Assembly (NCBI GenBank): GCA_045126855.1 | Contig: JBGVPG010000032.1 | Coordinates: forward strand, 5,274 to 69,273 | Direction: 5' to 3' | DNA length: 64,000 nucleotides | Source: Eubacteriales bacterium | Lineage (GTDB): Bacteria > Bacillota > Clostridia > Oscillospirales > CAG-272 | Shown: positions 30,125 through 41,758 of the stretch, in pieces | Numbering within the stretch: the first letter of the stretch is position 1 | Layout of the letters: each line of letters opens with the position of its first letter | Translations under genes and position numbers: made by a program | The notes under the pieces: model-generated | Database searches by the model: none | What the model was told of the DNA's origin: nothing | What the model saw: only the letters and a program-made list of their open reading frames with translations

Positions 30125-31558
30125 TTAGGATTTCTTCATCATACGGTAGAAGAACTCCACAGTACGGGAGATAGTGGCAACGGGAATGCGCTCGTTGTTG
30201 CCGTGGATCATACCGCGCTCCTCCTTGGTAAGAGCCATGGCGGAGAAGCGATATACCTTATCGGAGATCTCGCCCCAATGACGGGAATCCGAGCCTGCAA
30301 CCATAAGATAGGGGGAGACGATAGCCTCCTGCCAGGTCTCGGCTACGGTAGAGCGAACACGCTCGTATGCCTCGCAGCGGCTGTCGGAGATAACCGAGGG
30401 ATTGTTGCCGTTAATAAGCTCGACCTCGATCTTATCGTCGCTAACGGCTTTTCTTACGTGCTCAACGACGGTCTCCACCGTTTCACCGGGGATAATTCTA
30501 TGGTTGGAGACCATAGTTGCGTGGGCAGGGATAACGTTTGCTCCCTTTGAGCCTGTCATCTGGGTAAATGCGGTGGTGGTACGTACAACGGCGTTGAACT
30601 CACCGCCTGCCATCTTTGCATAGATACCGAGAACCGGACCGAAGCACCACTGGTTAGCGAAAATAAGTCTATAAAGGAAGGTGGAATGTCTGCCTGCTAT
30701 GTTGAAAAGCTCGGCAGTAGGCTTGGTCAGAGTGTATTTAAAGGCAGACTTCTCAACACGGAGACAAGCCGCAGAAAGACGGGCGATAGGACCGCCTGCT
30801 GTGGGAGAGGAGGAGTGACCTCCGCCGCCCTTAACGGTGTATTTGATATTCATCTGACCCTTCTCACCGAGACCGATGAGAGCAATGGGACTCTTTACGC
30901 CGGGGAATACGCCCGTGCACACTGCACCGCCCTCGTCAAGAACAAGACCGGGGGTAATACCGCGCTCCTTAAAGAGCTGAACTATACCGTAGGAGCCGTC
31001 GCCTGCGATCTCCTCGTTGCCACCGAAGGCGAAGTAAATATCATTTTTGGGAACGAAGCCCTCGCTGATAAGAGCCTCTGCCGCCTGAAGAATGCCGTTA
31101 AGAGTACCCTTGGTATCAAGAGTGCCACGGCCCCAGAGAACACCGTTGTCGATTATGCCCTCAAAGGCAGGCTTTTCCCAATCGTTCTCCTCCACGTTTA
31201 CAACGTCGTAGTGGGACATATAAACGCTGGGAGCCTCGGGAGACTTGCCCTTCCATCTAATGAGAATGCCACGGTTGCCAACCTTTTCAAAGGAACATTT
31301 TGCAAAAACCGCAGGGAAAAGAGTGGGCAGAAGCTCCTCGAACTTCTTGAACTCGGTTTCGTCATCAAGAGAGGCGTCTGCGTGAGAGATAGTCTTGCAT
31401 CTGATCATCTCGGCAAGGTCAGCCGTTGCCTTCTCGCCGTTTACGTATACGGGAGGAACGGGTACAGCCGATGATTTTGCAGGCTTAAATGCAAGTGCGC
31501 GGATAAAAATTACCGCCAGAAAAATTACAAGTAAAATCGGAAATACTATCCACCACAT
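30125..31558 (-). CDS. M20 family metallopeptidase with N-terminal membrane anchor
   Basis: 477 aa with an N-terminal TM (MWWIVFPILLVIFLAVIFI) and metal-ligand contexts MSHYDVV, GRGTLDTKG, GGNEEIAG and GGGHSS. Confidence 0.85.
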   Translation of the reverse strand: MWWIVFPILLVIFLAVIFIRALAFKPAKSSAVPVPPVYVNGEKATADLAEMIRCKTISHADASLDDETEFKKFEELLPTLFPAVFAKCSFEKVGNRGILIRWKGKSPEAPSVYMSHYDVVNVEENDWEKPAFEGIIDNGVLWGRGTLDTKGTLNGILQAAEALISEGFVPKNDIYFAFGGNEEIAGDGSYGIVQLFKERGITPGLVLDEGGAVCTGVFPGVKSPIALIGLGEKGQMNIKYTVKGGGGHSSSPTAGGPIARLSAACLRVEKSAFKYTLTKPTAELFNIAGRHSTFLYRLIFANQWCFGPVLGIYAKMAGGEFNAVVRTTTAFTQMTGSKGANVIPAHATMVSNHRIIPGETVETVVEHVRKAVSDDKIEVELINGNNPSVISDSRCEAYERVRSTVAETWQEAIVSPYLMVAGSDSRHWGEISDKVYRFSAMALTKEERGMIHGNNERIPVATISRTVEFFYRMMKKS

Positions 31559-33085: not shown

Positions 33086-34576
33086 TTAGCTATTGTGGAA
33101 AAGCTTTTTGGTCTGATATTGGGGCTCGCAGGAGAGGTTTGTGCCAAGCTTACGGAAGGTTGCGGCGTCAACCTGCGAGAGAATAACGGTGGAATGCACC
33201 TCGGCGTATTTCAGCCCTGGAATAGCCTCAAAGGCTCGCCTTGCCAGGGGGTTATTGACCGCCGAAACAGAGAGCGCTACTAGCACCTCGTCGGTGTGAA
33301 GCCTTGGGTTGTGGTTGCCGAGATACTCGGTCTTCAGCTTCTGAATAGGCTCGATGACCTCGGGTGAAATGACATCAAGGTCATCGTCGATGCCTGCCAC
33401 AAGCTTAATTGCGTTAAGCAGAGCCGCACTTGACGCTCCGAGAAGCGATGAGGTCTTTCCTGTGACTATTCTACCGTCGTCAAGCTCGATCGCAACGGCG
33501 GGAGCGCCCGTTTCCTCTGCACGCTTTAACGCCGCAGGAACGCACCTGCGATTCAGCTCGGCGGTGATGCCTATTTTACGCATAAGAAGCTCGATCTTGT
33601 CGATCTCCTCCTGGTTGTCACTTCCCTTTCGCATATTGCAGAGAGCGTTATAGTGACGGCGAATGATCTCCTGCCCTGCAGCGTCACAAACAGCCTCGTC
33701 GTCATAGATGCAGAAGCCTGCCATATTTACGCCCATATCGGTGGGCGACTTATAGGGGCACTCACCGAGAATACCCGAAAGCATTGAGCGAAGGACGGGA
33801 AATACCTCAACGTCACGGTTATAGTTTACCGCCATGCTGCCGTATGCCTCAAGGTGATATGGATCGATCATATTAACGTCGGCAAGATCTGCTGTTGCAG
33901 CCTCGTAGGCGAGGTTTACGGGGTGGCTGAGCGGAAGATTCCACACGGGGAATGTTTCAAACTTGGCGTAGCCCGACTTTCTGCCCATCTTGCTCTCGTG
34001 ATAGATCTGAGAGAGGCAGGTCGCCATCTTGCCCGATCCCGGACCGGGTGCGGTAACCACGACGATGGACCTTGTGGTCTCGATATACTCGTTTCTTCCG
34101 AAGCCTGCCTCGGAAAGAATAAGCGGCACGTTGTGGGGATAGCCGGGAATGGCATAGTGCTTATATACCCTGATGCCCAGCTTCTCAAGCTTCAACTTGA
34201 AGGCGTCAGCGGCAGGATTTGATTCATATCTGCTCATAACAACGGCACCAACGTAGAGACCATAGCCTCGGAAGGCGTCAATAAGCCTTAAAACGTCGTT
34301 ATCATAAGTAATTCCAAGGTCACCTCTGACCTTGTTTTTCTCAATATCCTCGGTGTTTATGGAAATGATTATCTCTGCCTCCTCACGAAGCTCGATAAGC
34401 ATTTTGATCTTTGAATCGGGGGCAAAGCCCGGAAGAACACGGGAGGCGTGGAAATCGTCAAACATCTTGCCGCCAAACTCGAGGTAAAGTCTCTCTCCAA
34501 AAAGAGAAATTCTCTCCTTGATCTTCTGAGATTGCAGCTTCAGATATTTGTCGTTATCAAAACCAACTCTGAACAT
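33086..34576 (-). CDS. DUF1846 / UPF0371 family protein
   Basis: 496 aa. The N-terminus MFRVGFDNDKYLKLQSQKIKERI...FGGKMFDDFHASRVLPGF is characteristic of UPF0371. Confidence 0.8.
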   Translation of the reverse strand: MFRVGFDNDKYLKLQSQKIKERISLFGERLYLEFGGKMFDDFHASRVLPGFAPDSKIKMLIELREEAEIIISINTEDIEKNKVRGDLGITYDNDVLRLIDAFRGYGLYVGAVVMSRYESNPAADAFKLKLEKLGIRVYKHYAIPGYPHNVPLILSEAGFGRNEYIETTRSIVVVTAPGPGSGKMATCLSQIYHESKMGRKSGYAKFETFPVWNLPLSHPVNLAYEAATADLADVNMIDPYHLEAYGSMAVNYNRDVEVFPVLRSMLSGILGECPYKSPTDMGVNMAGFCIYDDEAVCDAAGQEIIRRHYNALCNMRKGSDNQEEIDKIELLMRKIGITAELNRRCVPAALKRAEETGAPAVAIELDDGRIVTGKTSSLLGASSAALLNAIKLVAGIDDDLDVISPEVIEPIQKLKTEYLGNHNPRLHTDEVLVALSVSAVNNPLARRAFEAIPGLKYAEVHSTVILSQVDAATFRKLGTNLSCEPQYQTKKLFHNS

Positions 34577-35810: not shown

Positions 35811-37514
35811 ATGGAAAGCTATAATAAACTGACAACGGTCCACGCAGAGCGTATGGACAAAAATATCCCCTGGAATGAGTATCCGAGGCCCTCTATGGTC
35901 CGTGATTCCTTCCTCTGCCTTAACGGTAAATGGGACTTTGGCGTATCGAGTGACGGCAGTGAGCCCGAGTACAAGGAAACGATCCTCGTGCCTTTTCCTC
36001 CCGAATCTGCCCTCAGCGGTATCGAACGACAGGTTGAGTGGGGGCAGTATATCCATTGCAGAAGAAACTTTGTTCTGCCTGAAAATATGGTTGGAAAACG
36101 CATTATTTTACATTTCGGAGCGGTAGATACACTTGCAACCGTTTATCTTAACGGTGAGCGTGTGGCATACCACGAAGGCGGATATATCCCCTTCAGCATA
36201 GATATTACCGCCTACCTCCTATCGGGCGAGAATACCCTTACGGTCAAGGTGCTTGACACCCTTGATCTTGACTACCCCTATGGCAAGCAGACCAAAAAAC
36301 GTGGCGGAATGTGGTACACGCCTGTCAGCGGAATCTGGCAGACGGTGTGGATCGAGGCAGTGCCCGAGAAATATATTAAAAAGCTTGTAATCACCCCCAC
36401 GATGAATGACGTTACGATCAAGATAGTAGGCGGTGAAGCTAAGAAAAAAATCACTCTTCATGGCGGAGAGTGCTATGAATTTGAAGGAGACAGCATCACT
36501 ATTTCTCCAAAAGAAAAGCACCTCTGGTCTCCCGAGTATCCCTATCTCTACCACTTCACTATTGAGACGGGCGAAGACAGAGTTGACAGCTATTTTGCCC
36601 TTCGTGAAATCGGCATAAGCAAGGTGAAGGGCATTTCCCGTCTTACCCTGAATGGTGAGCCTTATCTCTTCAACGGTCTTCTCGACCAGGGATATTATCC
36701 CGAGGGTATCTTTCTCCCGGCGACAAGAAACGGCTACCTTGACGATATTCTCGCATCAAAGAGCTGTGGCTTCAATATGCTTCGTAAGCATATTAAGGTT
36801 GAGCCGGACATCTTCTACTACCTCTGCGACAGCCTTGGAATGGTCGTATTCCAGGATATGGTTAACAACTCCTCCTACTCCTGGCTTATTGATACTGCCC
36901 TGCCTACAGTAGGCTTCAAGCGTCTGCCTATTCTCTTCAGACACAAGGGAGAGAAATCGAGAAGGATATTCGAGGAAACTATGAATGAGACCATTGATCT
37001 CCTCTATTCCCATCCTTCTGTGCTTTATTACACTATATTCAACGAGGGCTGGGGACAGTTTGCTGCCGACAAGATGTATGACAAGGCAAAGGCTCTCGAT
37101 CCCACAAGAATCTACGACTCCACAAGCGGCTGGTTCTATCGCAGCAGAAGCGACGTTGAGTCACGCCACGTGTATTTCAAGCCCGTACGACTGGGAAGAC
37201 CTGACGGACGCCCTCTTGTTATCAGCGAATTCGGTGGTTATTCTCACCGTGTGAAGGGACATCTTTTCGGCAAGGACGAGTATGGTTATGGCGGCTTTGA
37301 GACCCGTGAGGAGTACGAGGATGCATTCCGTAAGCTCTACACCGAGCAGGTGAAGCCTCTGATCTCCAAGGGCATCTGCGGTCTGGTTTATACGCAGGTA
37401 TCCGACGTTGAGGATGAGACAAACGGAATCCTCACCTACGACAGAAGAGTGATTAAGCTCGACCCCGAACGCACAAGCTCGCTTATGGACGAGCTTTACG
37501 CCGAGATCAAGTAG
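35811..37514 (+). CDS. Glycoside hydrolase family 2 protein
   Basis: The start at 35811 follows an AAGGAG RBS. It has GH2 sugar-binding and TIM-barrel features (NGERVAYHEGGYIPFSIDIT, FNMLRKHIKVE, YTIFNEGWGQ). Confidence 0.8.
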   Translation: MESYNKLTTVHAERMDKNIPWNEYPRPSMVRDSFLCLNGKWDFGVSSDGSEPEYKETILVPFPPESALSGIERQVEWGQYIHCRRNFVLPENMVGKRIILHFGAVDTLATVYLNGERVAYHEGGYIPFSIDITAYLLSGENTLTVKVLDTLDLDYPYGKQTKKRGGMWYTPVSGIWQTVWIEAVPEKYIKKLVITPTMNDVTIKIVGGEAKKKITLHGGECYEFEGDSITISPKEKHLWSPEYPYLYHFTIETGEDRVDSYFALREIGISKVKGISRLTLNGEPYLFNGLLDQGYYPEGIFLPATRNGYLDDILASKSCGFNMLRKHIKVEPDIFYYLCDSLGMVVFQDMVNNSSYSWLIDTALPTVGFKRLPILFRHKGEKSRRIFEETMNETIDLLYSHPSVLYYTIFNEGWGQFAADKMYDKAKALDPTRIYDSTSGWFYRSRSDVESRHVYFKPVRLGRPDGRPLVISEFGGYSHRVKGHLFGKDEYGYGGFETREEYEDAFRKLYTEQVKPLISKGICGLVYTQVSDVEDETNGILTYDRRVIKLDPERTSSLMDELYAEIK

Positions 37515-37538
37515 TCTATTATATAATATATAATGTAG

Positions 37539-37576
37539 AAAAAGGACGAGATATCACTCTCGTCCTTTTGTTTTAT
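37539..37576 (+). terminator. Intrinsic terminator whose 8-nt loop is ATATCACT
   Basis: Stem AAAGGACGAG (37541..37550), loop ATATCACT (37551..37558), stem CTCGTCCTTT, then TGTTTT. Confidence 0.8.
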
Positions 37577-37583
37577 AAAGTTT

Positions 37584-37639
37584 ATGGCAGGAGAACCTTT
37601 CAGAACTCCTGCCATTGTTCTGCCTAAATAAGGCAGACG
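37584..37639. repeat. 56-bp direct repeat R1 (hairpin GGCAGGAG...CTCCTGCC)
   Basis: Identical to 37728..37783 at 53 of 56 positions. Confidence 0.85.
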
Positions 37640-37671
37640 ACCGGCTAGGCTTATTTTGAGCAAAGATTGTC

Positions 37672-37721
37672 GTTTGCGACCGAAGGCGTAGTTACCTACG
37701 CTGAGAGTTCAGCAAACGGCA
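37672..37721. repeat. 50-bp GTTTGCGACCGAAGGCGTAG...GCAAACGGCA element, copy 2
   Basis: Matches 30052..30101. The inner hairpin loop differs (ttac vs aaat) while the stem is kept. Confidence 0.8.
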
Positions 37722-37727
37722 ATAAAT

Positions 37728-37783
37728 ATGGCAGGAGAACCTCTCGGAACTCCTGCCATTGTTCTGCCTAAATAAGTCAGACG
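37728..37783. repeat. 56-bp direct repeat R1'
   Basis: Second copy of 37584..37639. It ends 3 nt before the stop codon of the converging 1069-aa gene. Confidence 0.85.
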
Positions 37784-37786
37784 TGA

Positions 37787-40700
37787 TTATTTGTACTGCT
37801 CTGCGTGGCCACCAGCAAGGGTGATCATCTTAACAGCCTGAAGCGAGAAGCTATCAGACTCGATAGTGAGCTTCTTGTTCATGGTACCGCGGGCAAGAAC
37901 CTTCAGTCTGCCTGCGTTCTGGGGAGCAAGTCTCATCTTCTTCAGAGCATCAAGGGTTACGACGTCACCGTCGTTGAAGTGGTCACAGATGGTGTCAAGG
38001 TTAATTGCGTGAACCTTACCGGATCTGGTCTTACCGGGGGTCTCATCAATCAGCTCAACGCTGAGTGCGGCTTCCTCGTCGGACATAAGCTCGTCTGCGG
38101 TCTCTGCATCAGCGAATACGGGAACCACCTCGGGCTCGGGCTCAACCTCTGGTGCAGGCTCCTCGATGACCTCAGCCACAGGCTCCTCAATCTCGGGCTC
38201 CTCTACGGGCTCTTCGATTTCAGGCTCTGCAACGGGTTCTTCTACAGCAGGTTCTTCTACAACGGGCTCTTCAACCTCAGGCTCCTCAGCAAGCTCAGGC
38301 TCGTTGATAAGCTCAGGAAGGGTCTCGGGAATTGCAGGTGCTTCCTCCTCGTCAGCAAAGGTGATGTTAACCTCTGCGTCAGCCATAACAACGTCAGGTC
38401 TCTCGGCTGCAGGTGCAGGAGCAGGCTGCTCTACGGGACGATCAATGATGGGAGCGATGGGAAGCTCGTTTGCCGCATTAAGCGCATTCTCGAAGCTGGG
38501 CTCGCTCTCCTCCTGCTTGTATGCAGGATTCTTCTGCATCATACCCATACCGGTTGCGGTTGCAGGAAGGACGAAGGGAGATTCGCCATAATCCTTGTTC
38601 TTGGAACGGATGGTGGGAATGGTGGGGATCATAGGCTCTGCGTGCTGTACGCGGCCGTCTCTGGTGGTAGGAATAGTATCGATCTTGGATGCACGCTTGG
38701 GAACAACGTCAACGTGAGGCTCTTCTACAGGTGCCTCGTGGCGCTCCTCAACAACTTCAATTACACCCTCATCGGTATCAATGATAGCGTGGGTCTCAGT
38801 AACAGTCTCTTCCTCGGCAGGCTCCTCAGCAGGCTCCTCGGTGGTTTCCTCAAGCTGCTCGGACTTCTCCTCGGACTTTTCCTCGAAGATCTCGCGAGTC
38901 TCCTCCTTGAGTTCCTCCACGGGCTCTTCCTTGGGCTCTTCCTTGACCTCGGTCTTTTCCTCGACAATCTTCTCTTCCGCAATCTCCTCCTCGATAACCT
39001 CGAATACGGTGCGGTAGGTGGTCTTCTTGGTTGTCTCGGTTACGGTAACCTCTACATCGCTCTCCTCAGCGGCCTTTGCAGGCGCATCATGATGCTCAGC
39101 GGTCTTTGCAGGCGCATCGTGAAGCTCTGTATGCTGGACTTCCTCGGTAACATGACCGTTCTTTCCGGTCTTGCGAACGATCTTTTCTTCTGTAAATACA
39201 GTATTGTTAATAAATGTAGACTTGGGAAGGTTTGCGGGCTCGATATCAACGGACTCTTCGTAAGTCTCAATCGCCTCGGGAATAGGCTCATCAACAAGCT
39301 CGGTAACCTCTACGATATCCTCGTAGATAACAGCACCGGTCTCAGGAAGTTCGATTCTGCTCTCGGGAATCTCGTTGTCGAAGAGGAACTCCTGGGAAGG
39401 AAGAACTGCCTCGTCGATGTGAAGCACGGTAGCAACCGGCTCAACGGGTGCGGGAGTAGGCTCGTCAACAAGCACGGTAGTCTCTACGGTATTCTCATAG
39501 ATAACAGCACCGGTCTCAGGAAGCTCGATTCTGCTCTCGGGAATTTCCTGGTCGAAGAGGAACTCCTCCTTGGGAAGAATAACGTCGGAAATAACAGTTG
39601 CTTCCTCGGCGGTAATCTCCGCAGGCTTAGCTTCATCCTCAAGCACAGTAGAGGCAACGTCCTCGTATACTGCAGCCTGCTCGGTGGGAATAACGATCTC
39701 CTCCTCGGGAATTTCCTGGTCGAAGACGAACTCCTCTCTGGGAAGAATAGCCTCTGCAACAACCACGGGCTCTGCAACGGGTGCAGGAGTAGGCTCGTCA
39801 ACAAGCTTGGACTCTGCAACCTCCTCGGAGATAGCAGCTTCTGCCACGGGAACAACCACGGGGGTCTCCTCTGTAACGAAGGTTGTTGTAATGGGATCTG
39901 CCTTGGGAATAACGGTCTCGGGAATAACAACAGGCTCTTCCTTAACGGGTGTAGGCTCATCCTCAAGCAGAGATGCGGTAATACTCTCGTAAATCGCAGC
40001 CTCGGCGGTAGGAATGAAGACGGGCTCCTCCTTGTTCTGGAAGAGATATGTAGCAGGGTCTGCCTGAGGTGTAACGCTCGCCATAATGGGCTCGGGCTGA
40101 ACGGGTGTCTCGGGCTTCTTCTCGTCCACAAGAACTGTGGGCGCTACGGTATTCTCGTAGATAGATGCGCTGATATGAACTACACCGCCAACGTCCTTGG
40201 ACGTAACGATGGTGATGGGAACATCCTTCGTAACGTATCCCGAAAGGGGATTTGCCTTGGGAAGTATGGGCTCTTCTCTCTTAGGCATCTCAGGTGCGGT
40301 CGCAGGAGCATCAACGAGAGTGCTTCTCTGCACGCCGTCCTCGAAGATATAGTTCTGAGAACCAACGTATCCGTGAGGAACGTCGTTATACTCAGGCTTA
40401 TCAATGATGTTATTAACAGGCGAAGCCTTGGGAATAACAGACGCATTGATAGGCGTCTTGCTTTCGATAACCAGACGGTTGTCCTCGAGAGTGGTGTAAG
40501 GAACATCCTCGTACACCTGGTTCGTAAGAGGCTGATCGATCTTATACGCATAAGGAATCGCGCCGCTGTTGATAGACTGCATAGGATTCGGGTTGGTCTC
40601 GGAAATAATGATTCCGTCAAGGCCGTGAATCTTAGGCACGGGCTGAGGGTCCATAAGAATAGCAGCGGTGGGCTCGAGAGCGTCAAGGAATACGCTGTCG

Positions 40701-40996
40701 GGTGCATCCCACTTGGCATCATCGAGATCCTCGTAAAGCTTAACGGATCCGTCGTCGTCCTCCCACTCCTTAATCTTCTTATGCTTCTTAACCTTAAAGT
40801 AGATTACGATAGCACCGATGAACAGGGTGAAGAATCCTGCAACAAAGCCGAAGAATACGTACAGCATAGGATCATTCCATCCGCTGACCTCGGCCGCTTC
40901 CCCTTCCGCGAAGGTGGGGATCACCATGGCAAAGAGCGCGGAGAGTATCATCAGCGCACAGAGCATGGCCTTCTGGTGTTTCTTAAAGATGTTCAT
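37787..40996 (-). CDS. Membrane-anchored repetitive acidic protein with C-terminal ribosomal uL15-like domain
   Basis: I prefer the start at 40996 (GGAG RBS; the track start is 41011). It has a signal-like segment plus a TM (VFFGFVAGFFTLFIGAIVIYF followed by KVKKHKKIK) and roughly 58-aa tandem repeats. The C-terminus AINLDTICDHFNDGDVVTLDALKKMRLAPQNAGRLKVLARGTMNKKLTIESDSFSLQAVKMITLAGGHAE aligns with the C-terminal half of Bacillus L15. Confidence 0.8.
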   Translation of the reverse strand: MNIFKKHQKAMLCALMILSALFAMVIPTFAEGEAAEVSGWNDPMLYVFFGFVAGFFTLFIGAIVIYFKVKKHKKIKEWEDDDGSVKLYEDLDDAKWDAPDSVFLDALEPTAAILMDPQPVPKIHGLDGIIISETNPNPMQSINSGAIPYAYKIDQPLTNQVYEDVPYTTLEDNRLVIESKTPINASVIPKASPVNNIIDKPEYNDVPHGYVGSQNYIFEDGVQRSTLVDAPATAPEMPKREEPILPKANPLSGYVTKDVPITIVTSKDVGGVVHISASIYENTVAPTVLVDEKKPETPVQPEPIMASVTPQADPATYLFQNKEEPVFIPTAEAAIYESITASLLEDEPTPVKEEPVVIPETVIPKADPITTTFVTEETPVVVPVAEAAISEEVAESKLVDEPTPAPVAEPVVVAEAILPREEFVFDQEIPEEEIVIPTEQAAVYEDVASTVLEDEAKPAEITAEEATVISDVILPKEEFLFDQEIPESRIELPETGAVIYENTVETTVLVDEPTPAPVEPVATVLHIDEAVLPSQEFLFDNEIPESRIELPETGAVIYEDIVEVTELVDEPIPEAIETYEESVDIEPANLPKSTFINNTVFTEEKIVRKTGKNGHVTEEVQHTELHDAPAKTAEHHDAPAKAAEESDVEVTVTETTKKTTYRTVFEVIEEEIAEEKIVEEKTEVKEEPKEEPVEELKEETREIFEEKSEEKSEQLEETTEEPAEEPAEEETVTETHAIIDTDEGVIEVVEERHEAPVEEPHVDVVPKRASKIDTIPTTRDGRVQHAEPMIPTIPTIRSKNKDYGESPFVLPATATGMGMMQKNPAYKQEESEPSFENALNAANELPIAPIIDRPVEQPAPAPAAERPDVVMADAEVNITFADEEEAPAIPETLPELINEPELAEEPEVEEPVVEEPAVEEPVAEPEIEEPVEEPEIEEPVAEVIEEPAPEVEPEPEVVPVFADAETADELMSDEEAALSVELIDETPGKTRSGKVHAINLDTICDHFNDGDVVTLDALKKMRLAPQNAGRLKVLARGTMNKKLTIESDSFSLQAVKMITLAGGHAEQYK

Positions 40997-41157
40997 AAGA
41001 TCTCCATTCATTGTCTTTTTACCGCCTACCCATACGGCGGCAACAAGAAATATGGTGTCAACGCGCCTATTTATATATATGCGCGTAAAATATTTCTATA
41101 CAGATATTATTATAGCACCTCTTTGCAACAAAATCAATAGGTATTTTAAAAATAAAA

Positions 41158-41190
41158 TAAAAAAATGGGAAGCCGAAGCTCCCCATTTTA
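41158..41190 (-). terminator. Intrinsic terminator of the small lipoprotein gene
   Basis: On the minus strand: TGGGGAGC-ttcg-GCTTCCCA followed by TTTTTT. Confidence 0.7.
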
Positions 41191-41202
41191 TTCTGATCGA
41201 AA

Positions 41203-41574
41203 TTAGTCAACCTTGTTAAGGGTAAAACCACCAAGCTTGATGTACTTTGTGCCGTTCTCCTCACCCTGAGAGAAGTCGAGAGTCTCAATGTTATCCTCTT
41301 CGGTTTCCCATGTAAAGGTGATCTGGAACTTGCCTTCCTCAACCTCGTTGATCTCATACTTACCCTCAACGGTTTCGGACTTGCTGTAACCAAGGATACC
41401 GCTGGTCTTGGTCTTGGTTACCTTTTTGCCGGAGAACTCGTATACAACGTGGTTGTCATCGGTAATCTTGAGCTCGTACTTGCCGCTAAGCATGATGCCA
41501 CAGGATACGAGGGAAAGAAGAGTACCTACGAGAAGTACGCATACAAGAAGTGCAGATAAAGTCTTTTTCATCAT
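41203..41574 (-). CDS. Small lipoprotein, hypothetical
   Basis: 123 aa with lipobox LVSC (MMKKTLSALLVCVLLVGTLLSLVSCG). Confidence 0.65.
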   Translation of the reverse strand: MMKKTLSALLVCVLLVGTLLSLVSCGIMLSGKYELKITDDNHVVYEFSGKKVTKTKTSGILGYSKSETVEGKYEINEVEEGKFQITFTWETEEDNIETLDFSQGEENGTKYIKLGGFTLNKVD

Positions 41575-41758
41575 TTTGTCTCCTTTTTGTATTATTAGTC
41601 TTTCAACTACATCTACATTTTACCATTTATTTGGTCAAATGTCAATGATTTTTATCCAAAAAAATCCATTAAAAATTATTAAATATTCTTAATTTTTTGT
41701 TGACTTTCATCGCTTGGTGTATTAAAATAAGAAGAGTTGATTAAGTGAGGAGATCGCT

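Follow-up and report, generated by a model that had tools for sequence, protein, structure and literature searches.

What does the globular domain of ribosomal protein uL15 do at the far end of a long, acidic membrane protein? The question is raised by a minus-strand gene (37787..40996) in a stretch of 64,000 nucleotides from a Eubacteriales bacterium (contig JBGVPG010000032.1 of assembly GCA_045126855.1), the whole of which is called here the window; we refer to the gene and its product as uL15-tail. An earlier note, made from the letters of this DNA, had aligned the last 75 or so residues of the product with the C-terminal half of L15, had described ahead of them a signal-like segment, a short loop, a membrane helix and the basic run KVKKHKKIK, and had predicted that the acidic region and the uL15-like module are cytoplasmic. 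The analyses presented here confirm that the C-terminal domain is truly homologous to the globular C-terminal domain of uL15. To judge from the sequences compared, a copy of this domain has been remodelled and has become established as the predicted cytoplasmic end-piece of well over 600 protein clusters in gut and rumen Clostridia. The domain is known but its architecture is new; it is real, widespread and, as far as we found, undescribed in the literature.

The uL15 core and the protein that carries it

The interval 37787..38045, in which the resemblance to L15 had been noticed, is the 3' end of a minus-strand open reading frame (ORF) and encodes residues 990-1074 and the stop; residues are numbered throughout in the 1074-residue frame that begins at the ATG at 41011. 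The Pfam family PF00828 (Ribosomal_L27A), the globular domain common to uL15, eL18 and eL27a, matched residues 1003-1071 over profile positions 2-72 of 72, with E 3.7e-11 and 43.7 bits for the whole protein and E 9.8e-13 and 48.8 bits for the last 95 residues. The gathering cut-off of the family (21.5 bits) was passed over the full profile, and the uL15 globular fold is present. When a family profile built from 64 members was run against the PDB sequences, it found uL15 and eL18 chains only, plus one chain deposited as an uncharacterised protein, and its best matches were Firmicutes uL15 residues 71-144 (E 2.4e-14; Bacillus subtilis 3j3v_L, E 3.3e-12). An AlphaFold2 model of the last 110 residues reached a predicted local distance difference test score (pLDDT) of 93.5 and a predicted template modelling score (pTM) of 0.85. 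Its top Foldseek matches were all uL15 in ribosome structures, and VIA-align superposed it on ribosomal uL15 with Z 11-12 and a root-mean-square deviation of 1.4-2.1 A over 74-77 residues, model residues 33-110 being paired with uL15 residues ~71-146. Given the full PF00828 match, the profile matches and the fold match, the resemblance is therefore true homology. The core retains the uL15 signature K-V-L-x-x-G ... T-K-x-L-T ... F-S-x-x-A ... I-x-x-A-G-G, and its net charge is +3, equal to the family median, as compared to a median of +1 for the canonical uL15 C-domain. A two-copy complex prediction for self-association of the module, run without controls, scored 0.00, a value that carries no weight in either direction.

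The gene and the parts of its product, from the N-terminus onwards, are the following:

37787..40996, minus strand: coding sequence of the uL15-tail gene, 1069 residues plus stop (ORF list and translation)
40910..40966, minus strand: signal-peptide-like or first hydrophobic helix (residues 16-34), closing with TFA ahead of EGE; hydropathy 2.34 over 19 residues
40802..40858, minus strand: membrane helix (residues 52-70) after an external loop of ~15 residues; hydropathy 2.55
40769..40795, minus strand: basic juxtamembrane run KVKKHKKIK (residues 73-81), a positive-inside signal read from the sequence
38120..40768, minus strand: acidic, Pro-rich, low-complexity tail, predicted to be cytoplasmic (residues 82-964); by composition
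39242..40534, minus strand: about eight degenerate repeats of ~56 residues with the motif [YF]-E-[DN]-x(5-7)-L-[VE]-D-[EA], predicted to be disordered; motif counts against shuffles
38024..38119, minus strand: acidic helical hairpin and short strand (residues 965-996); near-invariant columns, pLDDT 82-96
37790..38023, minus strand: uL15-derived globular core (residues 997-1074), with the PF00828 match at 37799..38005; Pfam, profile and fold matches

Immediately upstream of the core, and packed against it, lies a hairpin of ~32 residues, composed of two short acidic helices and a strand, and the conserved unit is therefore ~110 residues long. None of the superpositions on uL15 covered the hairpin, which has no counterpart there. 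Its consensus is D-A-x-x-A-D-E-L-x-S-D-E-E-A ... I-E, with D9, D14, A17 and I21 as near-invariant alignment columns, and its net charge is -8 in the window protein and -7 in the family median. The hairpin is one of three points that the earlier note overlooked, the other two being the very large family and the second carrier in the same genome described below.

The tail between membrane and module (residues 81-964, 884 in all) contains 24% D+E, 6% K+R and 12% P, and has a net charge of about -157. Pfam searches of residues 75-620 and 590-990 revealed no family, and the tail showed neither a sortase motif nor a wall-binding domain. The repeats span residues ~160-590, where the strict pattern occurs in six copies as compared to none in shuffled sequence; they are specific to the orthologue group, in which their number ranges from 4 to 11. 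An AlphaFold prediction of one repeat unit, based on 44 aligned units, gave a pTM of 0.16 and no secondary structure, and the repeats are best read as short linear motifs in a chain predicted to be disordered. A stretch of E-P-V/E-E-P repeats (residues ~900-960) just precedes the module.

The N-terminal layout given in the note agreed with the hydropathy of the two segments and with the sequence. In 142 family proteins the mean count of K+R was 4.58 in the 15 residues after the last membrane helix and 0.73 before it, and the count was higher after the helix in 137 of them. The module is therefore predicted to be cytoplasmic, and the tail with it, in agreement with what the note had proposed for the window protein from the positive-inside rule. 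These sequence features strongly support a membrane protein that is single-pass and type-I-like and has hardly any external part. The note had named beforehand two outcomes that would speak against it, namely a C-terminal region without a significant uL15 profile match and a module placed outside the cell by topology; neither was found, and the comparison of an AlphaFold model with uL15 that it had proposed ended in the close superposition reported above.

Family, descent and constraint

The uL15-tail protein is not the ribosomal protein itself, as the note had already held on the grounds that the Gly-rich basic N-terminal half is lacking. The rplO model TIGR01071 matched only through model positions 71-143 of 144, scoring 35.1 bits with the whole protein and 40.5 with its last 95 residues, against a cut-off of 77.95 bits; the full-length, above-cut-off match that marks an rplO equivalog was not obtained. 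The Gly/Arg/Lys-rich N-terminal extension (~70 residues) appears as a gap in the alignment with the uL15 of the same genome. Neither the spc-operon location before secY nor the size of ~145 residues holds for this gene, which lies between a GH2-like gene and a small ORF. The genome (1.62 Mb in 35 contigs, 93% complete) contains three PF00828 matches. One is the canonical rplO whose presence elsewhere the note had wished to see checked: it encodes 147 residues with a Gly/Arg/Lys-rich N-terminal half and stands on another contig (C18) after rplR and rpsE and directly before secY. The module shares 31% identity with this uL15 and ~30-37% with Firmicutes uL15 in solved ribosomes. The third match is a further carrier of 1066 residues on contig C8 (L004:3914-7114, plus strand; PF00828 E 2.6e-8), with Big_3 (Ig-like) and MBG_3 matches in its ectodomain, one membrane helix, a tail of ~170 residues and a more diverged module. 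A gene for an RluA-type pseudouridine synthase follows this second carrier.

An unrooted tree was built over 78 columns from 25 fused modules and the C-domains of 21 canonical uL15 proteins of Clostridia. A long branch with 100/100 support separated the two groups, and the tree is consistent with a single origin of the fused module. The two carriers of the genome fell in separate module subclades and are therefore old paralogues. Overall, it is strongly supported by these comparisons that the module is a diverged paralogue of uL15.

The family is large. A word-indexed search limited to proteins of 590-1880 residues returned 71 full-length relatives, all of them with PF00828 at the C-terminus; the few named ones were annotated as 'uL15 family ribosomal protein' or 'hypothetical protein' in metagenome-assembled genomes (MAGs) of Clostridia or Ruminococcaceae. 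The first of these names is misleading, and can inflate ribosomal-protein gene counts in MAG quality checks. The last 90 residues were also compared exhaustively, by HMMER, with 1.84 billion cluster representatives; 1642 clusters matched at E <= 1e-3, and 654 still did so at E <= 1e-10. In all but about five of the best 150 clusters the domain ended within a few residues of the C-terminus, and protein lengths ranged from 75 to 3676 residues. Among contigs taken from one genome per species, 487 stretches encoded a relative; the 80 listed of these derived from MAGs of Clostridia, Eubacteriales, Oscillospiraceae or 'uncultured Ruminococcus', plus one 'Bacilli bacterium', and their sample names were faecal, or referred to ruminant, deer or yak gut. 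The phylogenetic spread of the fusion, which the note had left to be determined, amounts to at least 654 clusters, nearly all from gut and rumen Clostridia MAGs. No description of this family was found in the literature.

The distribution of the family is patchy. Extra uL15-type copies were present in about 12 of the 19 genomes of the window's genus, the window's own counted, and were absent from 12 genomes representing 12 other families of the same order. Carriers occurred in 19 of 151 genomes and 14 of 97 genera of the window's family, while in an even draw of 400 genomes across the class the only carriers were the window's own genome and members of one other family. Canonical uL15 dominates the class-wide profile search (E 1e-12), in which only hairpin-covering matches in long frames were counted as carriers.

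A typical member begins with a signal peptide and an external part of variable extent; one membrane helix, a basic stretch and an acidic tail follow, and the module closes the chain. The external part ranges from ~15 to 1400 residues or more and the acidic tail from ~40 to 1700; minimal members of ~170-180 residues are reduced to membrane helix, short linker and module, and giant members present Ig-like domains after the signal peptide, on the opposite side of the last helix from the module. The window protein belongs to this family on all counts: its C-terminal module has F-S-L-Q-A-V-K-M-I-T-L-A-G-G and L-A-R-G, the hairpin is present, a predicted membrane helix, the basic run and the acidic tail follow each other in the order usual for the family, and the tree places it in the fused-module clade. 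Its near-absent ectodomain makes it a convenient minimal member for study. Some short family forms are devoid of a membrane helix and may be soluble variants or fragments. Three helix-less proteins (P0087, P0123 and P0151) begin with a small conserved domain, L-K-Y-x-x-E-L-I ... P-Y-E-x-T ... L-V-E-x-G-L-I-K, and a carrier from another family (L106:1746-3227, minus strand) has an extra basic domain of ~100 residues in its tail; neither domain had a Pfam match.

The constraint acting on the module was evaluated in congeneric genomes holding both proteins, over the same genome pairs. Modules of the window type were 63-71% identical, as compared to 75-84% for the canonical uL15 C-domain, and the second paralogue type averaged 77.7% against 76.9% for canonical uL15 (five genomes). 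Between orthologues the tail showed 33-52% identity, with many indels and large length changes, and in distant members only the N-terminal 100 residues and the module were recognisable. The module is the selected element of the protein, and it evolves almost as slowly as uL15.

The gene and its neighbourhood

The minus-strand ORF 37787..41011 comprises 1074 codons and is intact, with no internal stop. Its second ATG, at 40996, is preceded by a GGAG Shine-Dalgarno sequence 5 nt upstream, and the starts of the orthologues coincide with the equivalent of this codon; the alternative in-frame ATG at 41011, which would add 5 residues, has no good ribosome-binding site. The start at 40996 is therefore preferred, and the most likely length of the protein is 1069 residues, the one given in the note. 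A plus-strand ORF of 1111 codons (37805..41140) was considered as a gene and rejected: it had no Pfam match and an L/G/N/R-rich mirror composition, and we read it as a shadow of the GAA/GAG/CCN-rich minus coding strand. Two signals were recognised upstream:

41109..41137, minus strand: sigma-70-like promoter, TTGATT / 17 nt / TATAAT with a TG extension; 10 of 12 consensus positions matched, a consensus match only
41162..41189, minus strand: terminator-like hairpin at the end of the upstream gene; its 12-bp stem precedes a T run

The promoter-like site lies ~95 nt upstream of the start. Together with the terminator-like hairpin and the unrelated neighbours, it suggests that the uL15-tail gene forms a separate, monocistronic transcription unit. 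The 5' leader of ~95 nt (40997-41105, minus strand) was predicted to fold into two hairpins with a minimum free energy of -29.6 kcal/mol (z -2.0), a fold that is only mildly unusual, 12 of 200 shuffles being equally stable; an Rfam search of 37400..41700 at E up to 0.1 detected no RNA family, leader included. The upstream ORF of 123 residues (41203-41574, minus strand), at the end of which the terminator is clear, gave sub-threshold Pfam hints only (MoaF N-terminal and CelD_N Ig-like).

The module gene is found at a syntenic position in dozens of species, as a comparison of 80 related loci revealed. In 58 of these it adjoins a gene for a protein of ~191 residues with two N-terminal membrane helices (e.g., L014:5757-6332, minus strand; L011:4224-4793, minus strand; L035:6395-6982, plus strand), beyond which lie a GH2-like gene and DUF1846 or two other conserved genes. 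In one synteny group the ~191-residue gene converges with the module gene, in another the two share a strand, and one inversion can explain the difference. The ~191-residue protein has no Pfam family; its gene is missing at the window locus, and one query of this genome did not find it. As a functional partner of the module it was rejected, and no link is claimed, because of this absence and of the orientation that differs between synteny groups. In the window and its nearest relatives the GH2-like gene directly follows the uL15-tail gene, without the ~191-residue gene. Between the uL15-tail stop and the terminator of the GH2 gene, where relatives have the ~191-residue gene, the window presents a 200-bp non-coding repeat module (37584-37783), which may indicate that this gene was lost here. 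At the same locus some relatives encode proteins of more than 2000 residues, and ectodomains of more than 1000 residues occur there; the near-absent ectodomain of the window protein is therefore a lineage-specific state of an orthologous locus. Further downstream, the DUF1846, membrane-protein and M20-peptidase genes (33086-34576 to 30125-31558, all minus strand) are syntenic in ~14-24 related species, depending on the gene (M20 in ~10), which is conserved gene order rather than a shared operon.

Possible ligands of the module

To our knowledge, the ligands of the uL15 fold are 23S ribosomal RNA (rRNA) and neighbouring ribosomal proteins. The note had suggested that the module might tether or sequester ribosomes or assembly intermediates, or might simply reuse the fold. 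We tentatively propose that the module has remained able to bind the large ribosomal subunit or its rRNA, and that it keeps such particles close to the membrane. This reading is ranked first because the core motifs of uL15 are kept, the constraint is near-ribosomal, as fits a slowly evolving ligand such as rRNA, and the core is slightly more basic than that of canonical uL15. It is favoured also by two facts known from Escherichia coli. The bacterium is viable without L15, so that the uL15 site need not be occupied (Franceschi and Nierhaus, 1990, pmid 2204629, via PMC2577338), and its proteins YqjD, ElaB and YgaM are membrane-anchored hibernation factors that bind the 50S subunit (bioRxiv 10.1101/2024.08.16.608256). 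In such a mechanism the module would be the working head of a long polyanionic leash, and would keep the recognition of the large subunit that uL15 has, at 23S rRNA at or near the uL15 site; late precursors or subunits lacking uL15 could be its targets, and would be held reversibly at the inner membrane face. The role of the acidic tail would be to keep the head off the anionic membrane and to set its reach, while the repeated short motifs of the tail might recruit further partners. If the module does recognise the large subunit, it would represent a new way to couple ribosomes to the membrane in bacteria. A more specific version, by which a membrane-leashed uL15 paralogue docks at the uL15 site of large subunits or late precursors, or competes for it, and so ties a ribosome pool to the inner membrane face, seems rather unlikely to us; if true, bacteria would here have made a ribosome receptor out of a ribosomal protein itself.

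Several observations weigh against docking on the ribosome. The basic N-terminal extension of uL15 threads into 23S rRNA and accounts for much of its binding, and this extension is absent from the module. In its place stands the acidic hairpin, which could repel rRNA or cover the RNA-facing surface. Moreover, positions conserved in canonical uL15 are consistently shifted in the family: D-G before K-V-L has become G-R, L-G-x-G-E has become L-A-R-G, and E-K-I-E-A-A-G-G has become V-K-M-I-T-L-A-G-G, which indicates that the surface of the module has been remodelled. The neighbouring genes (GH2-like hydrolase, DUF1846, transporters) do not point to translation or ribosome assembly either.

About as likely, on the evidence at hand, is a reuse of the fold, in which the module would have lost ribosome binding and would now recognise another cytoplasmic ligand, a protein or another nucleic acid, and would be shared as a common adaptor or output domain by many unrelated membrane and surface proteins, at their inner end. 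At positions that are conserved otherwise in uL15, the family shows a strongly conserved signature of its own (F-S-L-Q-A-V-K-M-I-T-L-A-G-G and L-A-R-G); it has gained a conserved acidic hairpin and lost the RNA-threading extension, its branch is long with respect to all the canonical uL15 sampled, and other carriers have extra domains in their tails, all of which would suit a new ligand. No candidate ligand emerged, however; no neighbour gene is kept at all related loci (the commonest, of ~191 residues, is the one missing here), and near-ribosomal constraint across genera would be unusual for a lineage-specific protein-protein interface. Our literature search found no extraribosomal role or alternative domain architecture of uL15: a 2023 review of extraribosomal functions mentions it only as an spc-operon gene, and among the works naming PF00828 no title or abstract dealt with such fusions. 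Should the module have left the ribosome, it would be a clear case of a ribosome-only fold recruited for another job.

Less likely than either, and doubtful in our opinion, is that the acidic disordered tail is the functional part, as a polyanionic brush or spacer beneath the membrane or as a scaffold of repeated motifs that recruits partners, and that the module is only a stable folded cap which protects the C-terminus or sets protein turnover. The length of the tail, its strongly negative net charge and the eight conserved-motif repeats, variable in number among orthologues and predicted to be disordered, would agree with such a role. Nevertheless, across the family the tail is poorly conserved and differs widely in length; what does not vary is the module, and 60-80% identity across genera is more than a mere cap would require.

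A reversed topology, with tail and module outside the cell as part of a surface structure, is very unlikely. Acidic Pro-rich linkers are known in the wall-spanning regions of Gram-positive surface proteins, and many members of the family are giant surface proteins with Ig-like or MBG domains; yet the basic residues follow the last helix in nearly all the proteins counted, the Ig-like domains lie on the other side of it, and the tail has neither sortase motif nor wall-binding domain. Finally, that the gene is an artefact (a chance frame, an assembly chimera or a decaying rplO pseudogene) is hardly credible: the long open frame on the opposite strand indicates that such composition easily gives rise to long frames, but that frame has no family match, while the uL15-tail frame has a significant Pfam domain, 71 full-length relatives, a syntenic position in dozens of species, a Shine-Dalgarno sequence, a promoter-like site and no internal stops.

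The closest known relative of the module is uL15 (RplO; TIGR01071; PF00828), with which it shares sequence and fold over residues 71-146 and the core motifs; unlike uL15, it has an acidic hairpin and no basic extension, and ends a membrane protein of 1069 residues encoded outside the spc operon. With the proteins that NCBI names 'uL15 family ribosomal protein' in Clostridia MAGs, the window protein has in common the 110-residue module, the order of its parts and, for many of them, the syntenic locus. It differs from the relatives at the same locus in its external part of ~15 residues and in a tail with eight repeats of ~56 residues. YqjD, ElaB and YgaM offer a possible functional analogy only, that of an anchor joined to a cytoplasmic 50S-binding part. 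The window protein is not of their sequence family, its Pfam matches being PF00828 and a sub-threshold, unrelated DUF3671 (18.4 bits against 34). Those proteins are short, anchored by the C-terminal tail, and enter the exit tunnel with the N-terminus; the window protein is anchored N-terminally, is ~10 times longer, and has a ribosomal-protein domain as its candidate head. Cytoplasmic extensions of membrane proteins also contact the large subunit in insertases of the YidC2/Oxa1 type and in p180/RRBP1, and in p180 a single membrane helix joins a short lumenal part to a very long, repetitive cytoplasmic region. While the tails of YidC2/Oxa1 and p180 are basic and bind by charge, that of the window protein is strongly acidic, shares no homology with them and terminates in a folded domain.

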